Assembly (NCBI GenBank): GCA_963804125.1
Contig: CAWDPF010000011.1
Span: 1 to 64,000, forward strand
From: an uncultured Gemmatimonadales bacterium
GTDB taxonomy: Bacteria > Gemmatimonadota > Gemmatimonadetes > Gemmatimonadales > GWC2-71-9
Reading direction: 5' to 3'
DNA: 64,000 nucleotides
Below the pieces are notes generated by a model, which did not search any database, was not told the origin of the DNA, and was given only the letters and a program-made list of their open reading frames with translations. This document shows positions 2,933 to 24,040 of the stretch, one piece after another (within the stretch, counting starts at the first letter, position 1; every line of letters begins with the position of its first letter). The translations under genes were made by a program, and so were the position numbers.

Positions 2933-3155
2933 GGTCTTACAGGTTAGCCCGCTGCTGGTGGGCGGCGCCAGCCCCGGGCTCCCCGGGGATTGGCCGCTGA
3001 ACCTTTCTGCATTTGGTTGCTTTCTGTTGGCCTCTCGTAGTTTCTCGGGGGTTTGTTTTTCGCGCGTCAGTAGTACCTCACCATCGTTGCTCCTCTCCGG
3101 CCGCCTGGGCGACCTCGGCGCCGTTCCGTTTCCTCGTTCCCCCAGAGGTTCACAT

Positions 3156-4224
3156 GCGGTTGTCGAATGTGTTGCAGTCGGGGGTCTCATTGCGCTCGCG
3201 GGCCTGGCGGCCTGCACCGACGAGCCGGCCACCGAGCCGTCGGACGCCGGCGCGCCGGCCATGGCCAAGGCCAACGCACCGGACAACGACGAGGTCGTCC
3301 GCGTCGGTCACCCGCTCCTGACCCGGATCAACACCGGTCTGGCGGCCAGCGGTCAACGTCCGCGTCGCCAAGGTCGAGCTGTACAAGGGGCAAGAGGGAC
3401 CCCGCGTCGCCGACGACGATCTTCACCAATGACCGGACGCATCTCACCGCCTACCAGTGGGTGGCCGGCGATCCGCGGCGGGACGGCCGGGTCGGCGTCA
3501 CCTACGCCGTGGACCCCGAGCTCCAGACCTTCCTGACCGGCCTCGCGTTCCCCGTGCCGGTGATCGAGAACGGCGCCGGCTTCCGGCTGTCGTCGCAGGC
3601 GGAGCTCGACGGGCTCATCGAGGAGTCGATGCAGGCCTGGCGGGACCGGCGTTGCTCGACGCGCCGATCGAGCGCGTGGCGGTGCCGGCCGGCACCGACC
3701 CCGATCTGCTCGACGACTTCTACCTGGGGCGTCCCGTCCCCAGCCCGACCTATGCCCAGGTCGCGGACATCATCCAGGCCGGGTGGCAGCCCGCGGAGTT
3801 CTTCGAGGCCTACGTCCCGGGCGGCTCCGACGCCATCCTCGGCGTCACCTTCACGTTCGTGTTCGTCGACGACCAGGGCACGGCCACTGAGGACGACGAC
3901 ATTCCCACGGACATCAACGGCGACGGCCTCCTCGATACCTCGCTGGCCGAGATCTACTACAACCCCTCGTTCATCTGGACTACGCGCGGGGCGCCGAACA
4001 CCATCGATTTCTACTCGATCATCACCCACGAGACCGGCCACGCGCTGAGCCTGGCGCATTTCGGCAAGTTGTTCATCACCAAGAAGGATGGGGCCGACGG
4101 CTTCGACATCGACGAGATCCACTACGCTCCGTATGCCCTGATGAACGCGGCGTACGTCACGGGGCGGAATGAAATTGCAGGGACCGACAACGGCTCCTTC
4201 TGCCACGTCTGGGCGCGCAGATAA
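3156..4224 (+). CDS. secreted lipoprotein with metzincin-like zinc-protease motif (HETGHALSLAH), ~2 frame disruptions
   Basis: MRLSNV start, then lipobox VAVGGLIALAGLAAC. Downstream in two other frames: DPELQTFLTGLAFPVPVIENGAGFRLSSQAELDGLIEE and IITHETGHALSLAHFGKLF (HExxHxxxxxH spacing as in matrixin/M10 metzincins). TAA stop at 4224. Confidence 0.5.
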
Positions 4225-4248
4225 GCGGTTGCCGAGTTGATGCAGGGT

Positions 4249-4280
4249 GAACGGGGGGAGCCGGGTGGCCCCCCCCGTTC
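4249..4280 (+). terminator. GC-rich hairpin (GAACGGGGGG-loop-CCCCCCCGTTC) downstream of metalloprotease gene
   Basis: Perfect 10-nt inverted repeat directly after the stop codon. Confidence 0.5.
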
Positions 4281-4504
4281 TGGTTGAGGGGGGTCGTCCG
4301 GACCCGTTTGCAGTTGCCGGACGAACGCGCCGTTTCCTGGGCGCGTCGGATCCCCCGAGGGTGCCTCGTGGAGACATTGGGTTTCGCGGCGCGGAACCTT
4401 TGGATCGCGGCGCAGCTCGTCGAGGTCGGTGCTCGGGTGCTGGAGGTCGCGCCGCTCGCACGCCATTACGCCGCTCGTCGGCGTAGGGAAGCCGCTTCGC
4501 GGCT

Positions 4505-5026
4505 CGAGGGAGCTCCGTCGCGGCTTTCAGGGAGCTCCGTCTCGGCCTCAGGGTGCTCCGTCTCGGCCTCAGGCTGCTCCGTCTCGGCCTCAGGCTGCTC
4601 CGTCTCGGCTTCAGGCTGCTCCGTCTTGGTTTCAGGAGACTGCGTGTCGGTTTCATGGAGCCGCTGTCCGACTCTAGGGAGCCGCTGTCCGACTCAAGGA
4701 GGCTGCTGTCCGACTCTAGGGAGCGATCGCTGTCCGACTCGGGGAGCTGCTGTCCGACTCTAGGGAGCCGCTGTCCAACTCTAGGGAGCTGCTGTCCGGC
4801 TCTAGGGAGCCGCTGTCCAACTCTAGGGAGCCGCTGCCCGACTCAGGGAGCTGCTGTCCGACTCTAGGGAGCTGCTGTCCGACTCTAGGGAGCCGCTGTC
4901 TGACTCTAGGATGCCGCTGTCCGACTTTAGGAAGCTGCGGCGCGCTCCAGGGAGCCGCGGTCCGACTCGAGGGAGCTGCGATGCGACTCAAGGGCGCCGC
5001 GTTTCGACTAGAGGGCGCCCCGTCGC
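4505..5026. repeat. tandem array of ~25 x 21-bp units (two sub-families: CAGGSTGCTCCGTCTCGGCCT and TAGGGAGCCGCTGTCCGACTC)
   Basis: Direct reading shows head-to-tail 21-nt units with point variants and no unique spacers. One frame carries a TAG in every second-family unit. Confidence 0.85.
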
Positions 5027-5271
5027 CACGAAAGTTTGTAACGATCGCACCGAAGGTCGACGCGATCGCCCCCCGGAAGCGTCGTTCCACCCCCAGGGCG
5101 TTGCGTTCGCGCCTGAGGGAGAAGAAATCGCCCCCGAGGCCCGGGCGGTCGCAGTCCAGGCGGTCGCTGTCGGGCCTCGGGAGCGCGCGGCTTGATATCG
5201 GCTTGAGAGCGGAGTGCGATATCTAGCCGGAACCACCGTTCTGCCGGCGTTCCTTCCCCCAGGAGCTCCAT

Positions 5272-6456
5272 ATGCCTCGATTCGCCGCCCTCGTCCCCGC
5301 GCTCCTTCTGGCCGTCCTGGCCTGCCGGGACGAGGCCCGTCCTCACCGACCCGGAGCCCGGGCCGGCCCTCGCCACGGCCGCGGCCGCGACGCTGGCGTT
5401 CGAGCAGATCAGCGGCGGCTACCACTTCACCTGCGGGCCCACGACGGACCATCGAGCCTACTGCTGGGACTTCAACGACATCGCGGCGCTCGGGGATGGC
5501 ACGACCATCCACCGGCACACGCCGACGGCGGTCGCCGGCGGGCTCAGCTTCCGCCAGATCAGCGCCGGCGCCATTTCCGCCTGCGGTGTGACCACGGACT
5601 TCAGGGCCTACTGCTGGGGCGCCAACGACAACGGCCTGCTCGGCGACGGGACGACGACGTATCGTACGACCCAGTGGCGGTCGCGGGCGGGCACCGCTTC
5701 CGCCAGGTGGAGACCAAGTGGAAGCACACCTGCGGCGTGAGCTACCCCGACGACCGGGTCTACTGCTGGGGCGAGAACCTCGACAGCAGCTCGGCGACGG
5801 CACGCGAACCCGTCGCCTGAAGCCGACGCTGGTCGCCAGTGACCTCCGCTTCCGCCGCGTGACTGCCGGGTGGAGCCACTGGTGCGGCGTGACCACCGAC
5901 GACCGCCTGTTCTGCTGGGCCTTCAACAGCCTCGGCCAGATCGGCGACAGCTCGACCGCCGCGCGGCGCCTGAAGCCCGCCCGGGTCGGCCGGACCCGCG
6001 ATTGGCACGACGTGGACGCGGGGGGCTTCCACCGCTGCCGCGGTCACCACCGCCGACCGCGCCTACTGCTGGGGCAATGGCACCAAGGGCGAGCTCGGCA
6101 CCGGCCAGCAGGCCGTGAGCTTCTGGCCGAGAGCGGTGGCCGGCGGGCTCCGGTTCCATCGGGTCAGCGCGGGCTACACCCATACCTGCGGCGAGTCCAC
6201 GGGCGACCGAAGCTACTGCTGGGGCGACGGGTCCCTCGGCCAGAGCGGTGCCGGCTTCATCGTCGACAACCCTTTGACGCCGATTGCGGTCGTGGGAGGG
6301 CACGCGTTCAAGCAGGTGAGCACCGGCAGCACCCATACGTGCGGCAGGACCATCGCCGGCGTGGCCTACTGCTGGGGATACAATGCCTACGGGCAGCTCG
6401 GCAACGGCACGATCATCGATCGCCTGGCCCCGGTGCCGGTCGCGGACCCGATGTAG
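5272..6456 (+). CDS. RCC1-repeat (beta-propeller) lipoprotein, at least 3 frame disruptions
   Basis: Signal peptide and lipobox (LLAVLAC). At least 7 repeats of YCWGxNxxGQLGDGTTxxRxxPVAVAGGxRFxQVSAGxxHTCG spread over three frames (e.g. ORF 6115..6456 MSFWPRAVAGGLRFHRVSAGYTHTCGESTGDRSYCWGDGSLGQSG...). Confidence 0.6.
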
Positions 6457-6508
6457 CGCGAAGCTGGAACAGGCTCGTCGCAAGCGGAGCGGGTGCGGAA
6501 GCGCCCGC

Positions 6509-7050
6509 TCAGGCCTTGTCCCAGGTGCCGGGTGGCACCTCGTCGATCCAGAGCAGCCCCCGGTCCCTCGTGCCGATCACCTCGTCGTCCGTGTCCACCC
6601 ACCCCGCCATGTCGATCCAGGTCGACCACGGCTCCTTCGCCTCTTCCCGGAGCCGTGCCGCGTTTCGCGCCGCGAGCACTCGGGTCATCGTCGTCCTGCA
6701 CGAAATGGCGCACCAGCTCGCCGCCGGTGATGTACACCAGTTCGCCGAAGCCGGCCGCGTGGTCGCCAGCCGGCGTAAACCAGGTCGCCCCCGTCGGCGA
6801 GCCGCAGCAGGAGTTCCGCGGCGCCGCGGCCGCCGAGCCCGCCCGAGAGCTCCTGGAAGACCGTCCACGCGCCCCAGGGAAAGATGAAGACGGCGAGCCC
6901 CTTCCAATCCTCACCCTCCAGGGCCAGGTCGATCGACTCCCGCTCGGGCACCTCGCGTGCAGGCTCGACCTCGGGAACGCCGATCCAGGCGTGGAACTGC
7001 TCGAGCGCGTCCTTCAGCGGCCGGCGCACCCGCAGGTAGCTCAGGTTCAT
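6509..7050 (-). CDS. hypothetical protein (~180 aa, 2 frame disruptions); weak resemblance to SMI1/KNR4 (SUKH)-type immunity-like proteins
   Basis: MNLSYLRVRRPLKDALEQFHAWIGVPEV...EDWKGLAVFIFPWGAWTVFQELSGG...ADGGDLV / GFGELVYITGGELVRHFVQDDDDP / EPWSTWIDMAGWVDTDDEVIGTRDRGLLWIDEVPPGTWDKA* pieced from ORFs 6685..7050, 6387..6914 and 6509..6907. Confidence 0.35.
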
Positions 7051-10364: not shown

Positions 10365-10793
10365 CTCATACGGTCCGGCCTAGCGCGCCGTCGACCTGTC
10401 CGTCGCTCGAGCTGTCCATGCCCGGGTCGTTCATCGCCGTGCTGTCCATCCCGTCGTGGCTCATCGTGGAGCTGTCGATGCCCGTCTTGTTCGTCGAGCG
10501 TGTCGGTCCCGGCGCCGGTCGAGCTGTCGATGGCCTCGTTGAGGGTGTCGCCCTTGGACGTCACGGGCTGACCCTGGTCGGGCCGGGTCTGGGTGACGTC
10601 CGGGCTGATGTTGGACTTGCCGGTCGTGTCGACGCCCGACTGGTCGGCGTTGGCGTTGGCGGAGTCCGAGACGCGCGGCGGCCGTCGTGTCGCGCGCGGC
10701 TCCGACGTTCTCGTTGGCGCTGTTCTTGGCGCAGGCCAGGCCCCCGACCAGCAGGCTGAGCGTGGCGATGCGCATCGGCGATGGAACTCGCAT
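10365..10793 (-). CDS. low-complexity secreted lipoprotein (Asp/Ser/Thr/Gly-rich), frame-disrupted
   Basis: MRVPSPMRIATLSLLVGGLACAKNSANENVGAARDTT (lipobox), then SANANADQSGVDTTGKSNISPDVTQTRPDQGQPVTSKGDTLNEAIDSSTGAGTDTLDEQDG and DSSTMSHDGMDSTAMNDPGMDSSSDGQVDGALGRTV* in other frames. Confidence 0.45.
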
Positions 10794-10943: not shown

Positions 10944-11840
10944 CTACTTTCCCCCCGGCAGCTGAATCATCGGCATCGCGCCGCCCGTCACCTGCGGCAT
11001 CTGCCCGTTCCAGCGCTTGCTCATCTCGTACTGCACCAGCGTCGGCGTGATGCTCTCGCTCAGCAGCCGGTTCGCCTTGGCCTGCGCCTCCGCCTCGGCC
11101 AGGATCGCCTTGGCCCGGCCGGCCGCCTTGATCGAGTCGCCCTGGGCCTGGAACTGGTTCTTCTGCAGCTCGTTCTGCGCCGTGAGGCCCTGCTGCTGCA
11201 TCACGTTCTTCTGGTTGATGGCCTCGATCACCGACGGCGGCGCGCGCAGCTCGTTGATCGTGAACTGCTTCACCAGGATCCCGTAGGGCGAGAGCCGCTG
11301 CTCCAGCAGCTCGCTCACCCGCGACGTCGCCTCGGCCTTCTTGGGGCCGATGATCGCCGCGATCTCCTCGTTGCCCACCACCTCCTGCAGCGACTGCCGG
11401 ATCGCCTGCTTCACGTAGCTGTGCTGGATGGTCGCGATGTCGGTCCGGAACGTGGAGTACAGCGCCGGCACCTTGCTCGGGTTCAGCTCGAACGACATCG
11501 ACACGTCGAGCGAGAGCGGCTGGCCCTCGACGCTGTTGACGTTGATCTCGTCGTTCCCCGACGACCCTTCGCTCGGCCCGCGGGTCAGCACCAGCGTCTG
11601 CATGAACGTCGGGTACTCCTCGATCCCGGTCGTGAGCGGGTTCCGGGCGTGGAGGCCCGGACTGAGCGGCGTCGGATCCACGCCGCCGCCGACGCGGTGG
11701 ATGACGATCCCCACGTGCCCCGGGTTGATGTAGGTCATGGCGGTGGGCAGGAGCACCAGCAGCGCGATCAGCCCCAGGGCCACGCCGGCGAGCCGCACCA
11801 GGCGGCCGAGCCCCGAAACGCCGATACCGTCGCTACTCAT
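10944..11840 (-). CDS. SPFH/Band-7 (prohibitin/HflC-like) family protein
   Basis: MSSDGIGVSGLGRLVRLAGVALGLIALLVLLPTAMTYINPGHVGIVIHRVGGGVDPTPLSPGLHARNPLTTGIEEYPTFMQTLVLT...QAKANRLLSESITPTLVQYEMSKRWNG. AGGAGG RBS before the ATG. Clean frame. Confidence 0.8.
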   Translation of the reverse strand: MSSDGIGVSGLGRLVRLAGVALGLIALLVLLPTAMTYINPGHVGIVIHRVGGGVDPTPLSPGLHARNPLTTGIEEYPTFMQTLVLTRGPSEGSSGNDEINVNSVEGQPLSLDVSMSFELNPSKVPALYSTFRTDIATIQHSYVKQAIRQSLQEVVGNEEIAAIIGPKKAEATSRVSELLEQRLSPYGILVKQFTINELRAPPSVIEAINQKNVMQQQGLTAQNELQKNQFQAQGDSIKAAGRAKAILAEAEAQAKANRLLSESITPTLVQYEMSKRWNGQMPQVTGGAMPMIQLPGGK

Positions 11841-17973: not shown

Positions 17974-18080
17974 GACGGAAAGACGGACAGACGGAAGGAC
18001 GGAAAGGGAGGGACTCCCCTTCCGTCACTGTTCCGTTTCGCACGCTTCCGTCCTTCCGTCTTTCCGTCCTTCCCTCCCCC
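17974..18080. repeat. GGACGGAA(A/G)G microsatellite arranged as a long imperfect hairpin (arms GGACGGAAAGACGGACAGACGGAAGGACGGAAAGG / CCGTCCTTCCGTCTTTCCGTCCTTCC)
   Basis: Directly after atpH stop. A second, longer locus lies at 23853..24040. Confidence 0.8.
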
Positions 18081-23852: not shown

Positions 23853-24040
23853 AGACGGAAGGACGGAAGGACGGAAGGACGGAAAGACGGAAGGACGGGA
23901 ACTACGGCGCGAGTCACCCTGAGCGCAGCGAAGGGTCGCGCGACGCATCACGGACCTGCGCCTCGCTCCGCTTCGCTCCGCTCGTCTTTCCGTCTTTCCG
24001 TCCTTCCGTCTTTCCGTCCTTCCGTCTCCCCCGTCCCGCG
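23853..24040. repeat. composite repeat: (GACGGAAGG)n arm + degenerate REP-1 half (GAGTCACCCTGAGCGCAGCGAAGGG) + inverted (CCTTCCGTC)n arm
   Basis: Read directly: cgagacggaaggacggaaggacggaaggacggaaagacggaaggacggg...gagtcaccctgagcgcagcgaagggtcgcg...cgtctttccgtctttccgtccttccgtctttccgtccttccgtctccc. Confidence 0.8.

Follow-up and report, generated by a model that had tools for sequence, protein, structure and literature searches.

A 21-bp tandem array beside a metalloprotease gene in soil Gemmatimonadales: most likely a non-coding minisatellite, with units as putative phased binding sites

Described repeat systems and the array

In the mycobacterial MIRU-VNTR loci, intergenic units of tens of bp are arranged head-to-tail, and the number of copies varies between close strains by whole units. 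Plasmid iterons (R6K, pPS10, RK2, F, and P1) are direct repeats of 17–22 bp with a spacing of approximately two helical turns, present as 3–10 units, and tandem repeats also make up a number of partition sites, including F sopC (12 × 43 bp), R1 parC (10 × 11 bp), and pSK41 parC (20-bp repeats). Amongst RNAs, the sponges of the CsrB/RsmZ type repeat a short, purine-rich motif many times on a single strand. The Borg elements, reportedly described by Schoelmerich and colleagues in PLoS Biol in 2023, are said to possess fast-evolving tandem repeats, both intergenic and genic, with unit lengths that are often divisible by three. Literature searches on 21-bp tandem repeats in bacteria or in the Gemmatimonadota found nothing specific, and one paper describes satellites as rare in most prokaryotes and many of them as coding amino-acid repeats (PMC6749651).

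The array considered here occupies the spacer between a gene for a secreted metalloprotease and a gene for an RCC1-repeat lipoprotein, and is part of a window (the whole stretch of 64,000 nucleotides that was analysed) from a Gemmatimonadales genome with 71% GC. In kind, it is a bacterial intergenic minisatellite, or VNTR, with a head-to-tail period of 21, copy differences of whole units, and an intergenic, non-coding position, an assignment that carries the caveat of a depletion of stop codons on the + strand. The most likely description is that of a non-coding, strand-specific, hypervariable minisatellite that gains and loses whole units quickly and is kept at the same locus within a narrow sub-clade. 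The array resembles the MIRU-VNTR loci in its intergenic spacer, its whole-unit copy differences, and a unit length that is a multiple of three, but it is found at a single site in the 64-kb window and only once at each of the related loci, and is not a dispersed family; it does not, as MIRUs do, span the gap from the stop codon of one operon gene to the start codon of the next; and it is kept, along with the core of its unit and a unique central unit, amongst relatives with a protease identity of ~80%.

The likeness to iterons consists of a 21-bp register that is maintained over ~40 units and a conserved core in each repeat, which suggests repeated binding by one protein. Unlike iterons, the array has ~40 units and is chromosomal (the orthologous contig is 1.05 Mb). 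Its surroundings lack a rep gene, DnaA boxes, and any AT-rich unwinding element; the genes nearby encode a Na/H exchanger, response regulators, the protease, and RCC1. Partition centromeres are likewise long tandem arrays of phased sites, which in partition systems are coated cooperatively by protein, whereas the flanks of this array are the protease gene and assorted lipoprotein genes. No Pfam family of the parA, parB, or parR type was present amongst the called genes within 10 kb in the nearest relative (L001), or amongst those of three further relatives (L007, L008, and L081). With the Borg repeats, the array shares fast evolution, an occurrence in environmental genomes, and a unit divisible by three; in contrast to the Borg repeats, which are said to be near-perfect, A-rich, and numerous per element, it is single, GC-rich, largely degenerate, and located on a bacterial chromosome. 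A CRISPR array was rejected, as the units abut directly and no spacers are present.

Extent of the array and its flanks

A preliminary description of this DNA had placed a 21-nt array of ~25 copies at 4505–5026, and the units in this interval do form a genuine direct-repeat array, arranged head-to-tail. TRF identified a first block at 4512–4626 (period 21, 5.4 copies, 93% match) and a second at 4657–5000 (period 21, 16.4 copies, 82% match), plus two higher-order periods (83 and 104 nt), which equal blocks of 4–5 units. At ≤3 mismatches, GGAGCCGCTGTCCGACTCTAG had 13 matches and CAGGCTGCTCCGTCTCGGCCT had 5 matches (chance expectation, 0.01), all of which were inside the array and on the + strand, with neither consensus unit found anywhere else in the 64-kb window at this threshold. 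The TRF blocks and the mismatch search bear out the array itself, but the extent of ~520 bp proved too small. Lag-21 identity is raised from ~4340 to ~5160, beyond the homogenised core, and a wrap-around profile alignment placed ~41 units in a single register (4338–5199). The interval 4505–5026, with ~22 clear copies, is the homogenised middle of this longer 21-nt-periodic tract, which takes up most of the spacer from the protease hairpin to the presumed RCC1 promoter region (Table 1).

Table 1. Coordinates of the repeat tract, its component blocks, and its neighbours in the window.
Feature	Position	Strand	Basis or remark
Secreted M10/M43-like metalloprotease gene, upstream neighbour	3154..4224	+	Weak Pfam Peptidase_M10/M43 matches; frameshifted in window
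G6...C8 hairpin, presumed terminator, left boundary of tract	4249..4280	+	MFE −29.6 kcal/mol
Left block, ~9 diverged units of the AGGTCGnnGC... type	4338..4528	+	Lag-21 identity 0.37–0.65
Family-1 units AGGCTGCTCCGTCTCGGCCTC, n = 6	4529..4654	+	2 more than L001
Family-2 units AGGGAGCCGCTGTCCGACTCT, n = 13	4655..4928	+	Holds the 24-nt unit 4718 and the window-only 20-nt units 4742 and 4825
Five diverged units, including the genuine 20-nt unit 4929	4929..5032	+	Unit alignment, L001 comparison
Island unit AGTTTGTAACGATCGCACCGA, AT-richer, single-copy	5033..5053	+	Cross-lineage conservation far above neighbouring units
Right block, ~7 diverged units, up to presumed RCC1 promoter region	5054..5199	+	Lag-21 identity 0.46–0.52
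RCC1-repeat lipoprotein gene, downstream neighbour	5272..6456	+	Pfam RCC1/RCC1_2; stop codon 6454–6456

Units are 21 nt in length with the exception of one 24-nt unit (4718) and four 20-nt units (4742, 4825, 4929, and 5075, the last of which sits in a C-run), and the earlier statement that the units differ by point variants only does not hold. At least one of the 20-nt units, that at 4929, is certainly real, as the only 20-nt unit common to the window and L001; the three that are specific to the window (4742, 4825, and 5075) may be deletion errors of the assembly.

On the left, the hairpin lies directly 3′ of the protease stop codon and is conserved in L003, L001, L006, L007, L008, L076, and L081. 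It had been described as a strong terminator, for which the strength of the fold and the conservation speak; it has no U-tail, however, and was not called by a consensus terminator scan. On the right, the RCC1 gene start that had been assigned to 5272 is confirmed by a signal peptide and lipobox at this position and by an L001 orthologue called with the same start.

Variation and conservation among relatives

The nearest relative, L001 (uncultured Gemmatimonadales MAG MFD04935.bin.2.79; a 1.05-Mb contig with ~94% nucleotide identity to the window), shares this tract and its register with the window, but has four units of family 1 and only two of family 2. Within family 1, pairwise alignment of the window and L001 leaves a clean gap of 42 nt, equal to two units. 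Within family 2, the window has 11 more units than L001 (a gain in the window or a loss in L001), and the L001 units at 11480 and 11501 are the window units at 4887 and 4908, the last two of the family. The segment 4307–4390 is rearranged and not colinear with L001, which has three AGGTCGCG-type units there. Comparison of copy number between strains had been named beforehand as a check on the array, and the outcome was a set of whole-unit differences, with two additional family-1 units and 11 additional family-2 units in the window; between the window and L001, the tract changes by whole units or unit blocks. Such changes are expected from slipped-strand mispairing or unequal recombination, a pattern that the higher-order periods of 4–5 units match. 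Outside of the indels, the tract has diverged by 5.3–6.1% between the window and L001, compared to 5.6–6.1% at the third codon positions of the flanking genes (protease, 20/360; RCC1, 24/395), and because these two values are equal no constraint is detectable at this distance.

Gemmatimonadales metagenomes contain hundreds of homologues of the protease, and the contigs of the closest ones were compared. In L008 (protease 82% identical; GCA_040003495.1), a 21-nt-periodic tract is present at ~1105–1693, directly after the orthologous hairpin, with further 21-nt arrays in L007 (protease 80% identical; ~6404–6990) and L081 (protease 79% identical; ~2294–2900), and a short, degenerate array in L082 (protease 80% identical; ~1590–1800). 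A search of other genomes for the unit, suggested in the preliminary description, thus yielded homologous arrays in four relatives beyond L001 (protease identity, 79–82%), and in all five of these other assemblies (L001, L007, L008, L081, and L082) the array has the same position, the same register, and the + strand. The sizes of the left and right blocks differ widely between these assemblies, for instance amongst L007, L008, and L081. The genes 3′ of the array also differ by locus (RCC1; a cupin-like lipoprotein and a kinase; a 436-aa lipoprotein), and for this reason the array is considered to go with the protease side of the spacer.

The array was absent in six close relatives with 75–80% protease identity (L009, L076, L077, L079, L080, and L006), and none was present downstream of the protease gene in 66 more distant metagenome loci. 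In L003, the slot is occupied by a 141-aa minus-strand gene and there is no array. A genome scan with the protease returned only three loci, and the island pattern was not found in viral contigs. The array persists at one locus within a narrow sub-clade of soil Gemmatimonadales. A different 21-nt array (ATGGCGATGCACTTCGCTCGA and variants, ×10) occurs in L025 (one of the 66 metagenome loci; protease 49% identical), where it is upstream of the protease gene and on the same strand, with a score against the unit model of −2.2 bits per unit (shuffles, −13.5 ± 1.2), which hints that the element and the protease family may travel together.

Conservation is distributed unevenly along the unit. In the consensus derived from 106 distinct units (AGGnCGnCGCGnnnnnnCnnn), C occupies position 10 in 97% of units, and G occupies positions 3, 6, and 2 in 92%, 91%, and 84%, respectively; A is found at position 1 in 75%, and positions 4, 12, and 21 are close to random. 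The core AGGnCGnCGCG occurs in nearly every unit across loci and the remainder of the unit has diverged. Within L007 and L008, units are diverged from one another (lag-21 identity, ~0.5–0.65), and the per-position conservation profiles of these two loci are correlated (Spearman 0.76, p = 7e-5), with each of the two profiles also correlated to the diverged blocks of the window (0.44–0.66). A PWM was built from the L007 and L008 units only and applied to the other loci, for which the left block of the window scored +1.6 bits per unit (shuffles, about −13) and the right block scored +0.5 on the + strand and −10 on the − strand. The diverged blocks of both the window and L001 were matched by this PWM on the + strand only, and for L081 the unit model gave +190 bits on the + strand and −127 bits on the − strand.

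The core of the island, GAAAGTTTGTAACGAnCGCACCG, is unique in the window and identical in the window, L001, and L008, and the island unit is partly recognisable in L081 and L007. For the units beside it, a count by eye of the aligned unit rows of the window and L008 gave only 10–14/21 identical positions. The central island (AAGTTTGTAACGA...) persists across lineages while the sizes of the blocks change. This uneven and lineage-independent conservation would be consistent with either selection on the core and the island or strongly biased concerted evolution. Uniform neutral decay of a single ancestral unit would not produce such unevenness in independent lineages. Part of the conservation of the core could result from concerted evolution and not from function.

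Interpretation and alternative readings

The chances appear about even that the tract is a non-coding, 21-bp VNTR minisatellite in the spacer with units that act as phased binding sites, the binding sites being putative. From the pattern of conservation, the best guess for the units is that of phased recognition sites for a DNA-binding protein, since the core is kept while the rest of the unit drifts and 21 bp corresponds to two helical turns. Under the proposed mechanism, slipped-strand mispairing or unequal recombination between units would grow and shrink the array by units or blocks, the recognition sites would fall on one face of the DNA and be bound by a sequence-specific protein, and this putative protein could coat the spacer between the protease and lipoprotein genes and serve there as a scaffold, insulator, or roadblock. 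Amongst the called neighbours in L001, L007, L008, and L081, no candidate binding protein was consistently encoded beside the arrays.

Possible, though rather doubtful, is a further step in which the tract would be an undescribed chromosomal cis-element of this Gemmatimonadales clade, with 30–40 putative phased sites arranged around the island and beside the protease, functioning as a nucleoprotein scaffold, insulator, or roadblock, or as a sponge if transcribed. This tentative proposal would have AGGnCGnCGCG retained every 21 bp, in a strand-specific manner, while single units turn over. If the core and the island are functional, the array would represent an unusual, long, phased chromosomal binding array in bacteria that persists across species. 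Relative to known minisatellites, the unusual aspect is the cross-lineage conservation of the unit core and the central island.

The alternative that survives best, though it is judged unlikely, holds the tract to be a neutral relic or junk satellite without function, in which common descent and homogenisation through slippage or gene conversion keep the periodicity and the core, and the array persists only since nothing removes it. The match of window–L001 divergence to the synonymous-site rate is in accordance with neutrality, as are the wide variation in block sizes, the loss of the array in several close relatives, and the failure to detect any structure, promoter, terminator, or RNA family in the tract. 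Neutrality sits poorly with positions 2, 3, 6, and 10, which remain 84–97% conserved despite the diverged units of L007 and L008, in contrast to the almost random positions 4, 12, and 21, with the recurrence of the same conservation profile in independent lineages, and with an island that is identical between lineages for which the neighbouring units are only 50–65% identical. Behind this alternative follow, as progressively less likely, a heptad-repeat gene, a repeat RNA, and an assembly artefact.

As 21 nt equals seven codons, all frames were scrutinised (six-frame translations, five loci). It is improbable, but has several points in its favour, that the tract is or recently was a gene for a heptad-repeat protein (R-D-x-L-E-x-A/ESDSGSL on the minus strand, or E-G-V-A-C-x-L on the plus strand), with the frame breaks in the window due to sequencing errors or recent pseudogenisation. 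The window does have ~6 one-base deletions per kb in its flanking genes relative to L001, and a comparison of the genes themselves indicates ~3–4% substitutions and six or seven, mostly one-base, deletions per gene. For the protease, six deletions of 1–3 nt separate the window from L001, where the orthologue (P0001, 359 aa, 97% identical) is intact. The RCC1 gene, with an intact L001 orthologue of 395 aa, has at least four frameshifts in the window, with Pfam RCC1 matches in two frames and RCC1 repeats in three (three-frame translation), and in GC-phase profiles of the window the coding phase of both neighbouring genes jumps every few hundred bases. Reading frames in the window are unreliable because of the error-rich assembly and the indels in the flanking genes.

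On the + strand, frame C (xAG Gxx Gxx GCG...) encodes heptads of the E-G-V-A-C-x-L type and is open across the L007 and L008 arrays. In both the window and L001, it is closed by a TAG in every family-2 unit, as the preliminary description had observed for one frame of its second family. The end of frame C differs by lineage, which argues against a gene: the island TAA terminates it in L081, a stop 79 nt short of RCC1 does so in L001, and in L008 the frame continues uninterrupted into a lipoprotein gene that has its own signal peptide. The array as an in-frame, N-terminal extension of this 198-aa L008 gene was rejected on account of that lipoprotein signal peptide; the 436-aa gene of L007 also has its own lipoprotein signal peptide and is unrelated to the 198-aa gene. 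Frame A (AGG xxG xxG CGx; R-x-x-R heptads) shows no stop in L007 or in the left part of L001, and meets the island TAA in the window, L001, and L008. That a plus-strand frame is fully open in L001, L007, and L008 with stops depleted favours a gene, but although a count of stops per frame and locus shows a fully open frame in most loci, which unit frame is open changes from locus to locus. For frames A and C of L007, and marginally for L008, fewer stops occur on the + strand than column shuffles predict (p 0.006–0.06), and a T at unit position 21 is followed by AG in 0/7 cases (L007 and L008). This depletion could reflect some translation, or a general avoidance of CTAG/TA.

The antisense M frame encodes R-D-x-L-E-x-A heptads (ESDSGSL in family 2) and is the most gene-like in GC1/GC2/GC3, with the variable positions 21 and 12 at third codon positions, in codons of the CTN/GCN type. 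It nonetheless has no start and contains 1–5 stops per locus, as many as are predicted by column shuffles and hence at the neutral expectation, and in every locus it passes the protease terminator hairpin into the protease antisense without a stop. In L001, where the neighbouring genes are intact, stops occur in frames C and M and the 20-nt unit is genuine. Further, the unit model has a GC3 of 0.68–0.80 in any frame (calculated from base frequencies), far below that of the flanking genes (0.9–1.0).

Protein searches with the conceptual products were performed against databases of 5.8e9 and 1.8e9 proteins. The ORF called at the right end of the array (P0122, 81 aa, in the window assembly; P0121, 71 aa, in L001; with a frameshift between them) had no homologue amongst 5.8 billion proteins except for the two with each other, and no homologue of the L007 M-frame product was found in the protein database search. 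For the 124-aa minus-strand ORF of the window, an exhaustive HMMER search returned only unrelated, low-complexity heptads of the LPRVG type from assorted organisms. The 141-aa gene in the slot of L003 is a real minus-strand heptad gene, with weak tblastn similarity to the M frame of L008 (E = 4e-5, for a tiny database), but it fits the unit model poorly (−9.4 bits). Homology to its product was rejected as a similarity of periodic Arg only, given the misfit to the unit model, the lack of a Pfam match, and no copy elsewhere; the gene is treated as a positional coincidence, or at most a very remote relation. Coding on either strand was rejected as the main reading because no frame is consistent in translations, GC phase, stop counts, or start and stop context. 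The earlier preference for a non-coding minisatellite or slippage tract is upheld by the whole-unit variation, the independent assemblies, the lack of a consistent frame, and the lack of homologues.

A transcribed repeat RNA, as either the 3′ UTR of the protease or an independent ncRNA, with ~30–40 AGG...GCG motifs that would act as a sponge, titrating an RNA-binding protein, has a still smaller chance of being correct. At all six loci, and also in the distant L025, the motif is strictly confined to one strand, in the orientation of the protease. The tract begins 20–60 nt after a hairpin without a U-tract. Both observations favour this reading, but co-orientation follows from orthology anyway. 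Rfam matches in the tract were at noise level only, neither a sigma-70-type promoter nor a canonical intrinsic terminator was detected in 4100–5400, no base-pair covariation was found between unit positions, and the fold of the L008 array was no better than that of shuffles (z of −0.6 and 0.0 for the two strands). Based on the Rfam, covariation, and fold results, a structured RNA or known RNA family was rejected. The array does resemble the CsrB/RsmZ RNAs in repeating one short, purine-rich motif many times on the same strand, but it differs in having no conservation of GGA, no presentation in hairpins, no Rfam match, and no fold signal. Unit position 4 is A in only 19% of units, and with GGA not conserved a CsrB-like sponge is unlikely.

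An assembly artefact, in which the repeat was mis-assembled or artificially expanded in a noisy long-read assembly, is scarcely credible, for while the window is clearly rich in indel errors and its 11 extra family-2 units are known from the window assembly alone, the independent L001 assembly has the same tract, register, and flanks, and short-read contigs from JGI, NCBI, and Logan contain homologous arrays. The preliminary description had taken absence from all related genomes as the mark of such an artefact; the array is present in independent related assemblies, and the uncertainty that comes from assembly is confined to the exact copy number in the window.

If the array is a slippage-driven satellite only, it would have practical value as a marker for strain typing and would serve as a warning of spurious ORF calls. 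Gene callers placed ORFs on the arrays of the window assembly (81 aa), L001 (71 aa), L007 (292 aa), and L081 (278 aa).

Assembly errors and open reading frames called on the arrays

Relative to the intact orthologues of the closest relative locus (L001, ~94% nucleotide identity), the window carries ~6 one-base deletions per kb over 3154-4224 and 5272-6456, and its assembly is error-rich in these two stretches. Because of these deletions, the secreted protease gene and the RCC1-repeat lipoprotein gene on either side of the 21-nt array appear multiply frameshifted. Numerous further genes of the window look split, and the error-richness probably extends over its entire length.

Gene callers placed open reading frames (ORFs) on the array of the window, on that of L001 and on the homologous arrays of two further relatives (L007 and L081), in frames and on strands that differ between loci. 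Their predicted products, Arg-rich or heptad in character, belong to no family, and all four ORFs are almost certainly spurious database entries.

Positions of the features described in the window and in related loci
Feature	Locus	Position	Strand	Size or copies
ORF called on array	L007	6514-7392	-	292 aa
ORF called on array	L081	1862-2698	+	278 aa
ORF called on array	L001	11574-11789	+	71 aa
ORF called on array	window	4981-5226	+	81 aa
Heptad gene (R-x-x-x-E-x-A) in array slot	L003	11179-11604	-	141 aa
GGCTTGAnnTCnGCTTGAnnGGCG motif, upstream of downstream gene	window	5187-5225
GGCTTGAnnTCnGCTTGAnnGGCG motif, upstream of downstream gene	L003	11690-11730
Different 21-nt tandem array, at contig edge	L025	1-230		~10 units, 42-nt super-period
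Octamer array / inverted copy, locus 1	window	17974-18006 / 18045-18077
Octamer array / inverted copy, locus 2	window	23854-23898 / 23983-24027
Tandem repeat of 30-nt period	window	10403-10486		2.7-3.9 copies
Tandem repeat of 30-nt period	L001	17365-17482		2.7-3.9 copies

The array slot in other relatives

In L003, a relative whose protease is 79% identical, a real-looking heptad gene sits where the array would be. Its GC3 is ~0.9 (estimated by eye), it matches no Pfam family and no copy of it was present among the other loci retrieved. The motif GGCTTGAnnTCnGCTTGAnnGGCG is common to the window, L001 and L003 despite unlike downstream genes and may be a shared promoter-type element. The more distant metagenome locus L025 bears a 21-nt array built of ATGGCGATGCACTTCGCTCGA and ATCCGGCGGCACTCGGCTCGA units, to which the unit model (a per-position profile from L007 and L008) fits partially, on the same strand. 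A G/C hairpin comes after this array, which lies upstream of a protease homologue of 49% identity.

Other repeats in the window

Two loci of the window, each positioned immediately past a gene end, combine a tandem octamer array, (GACGGAAR)x4-6, with an inverted copy, (YTTCCGTC)x4-6, 40-85 nt further on. The two-unit octamer pattern was matched 15 times (0 expected), with no match among 82 related loci; each pair could fold into a long hairpin made of 8-nt repeats. The TCGCCGAGCTGTCCATGCCCGTCGTCGCTCA-like repeat of 30-nt period, kept in both the window and L001, probably lies within a gene.
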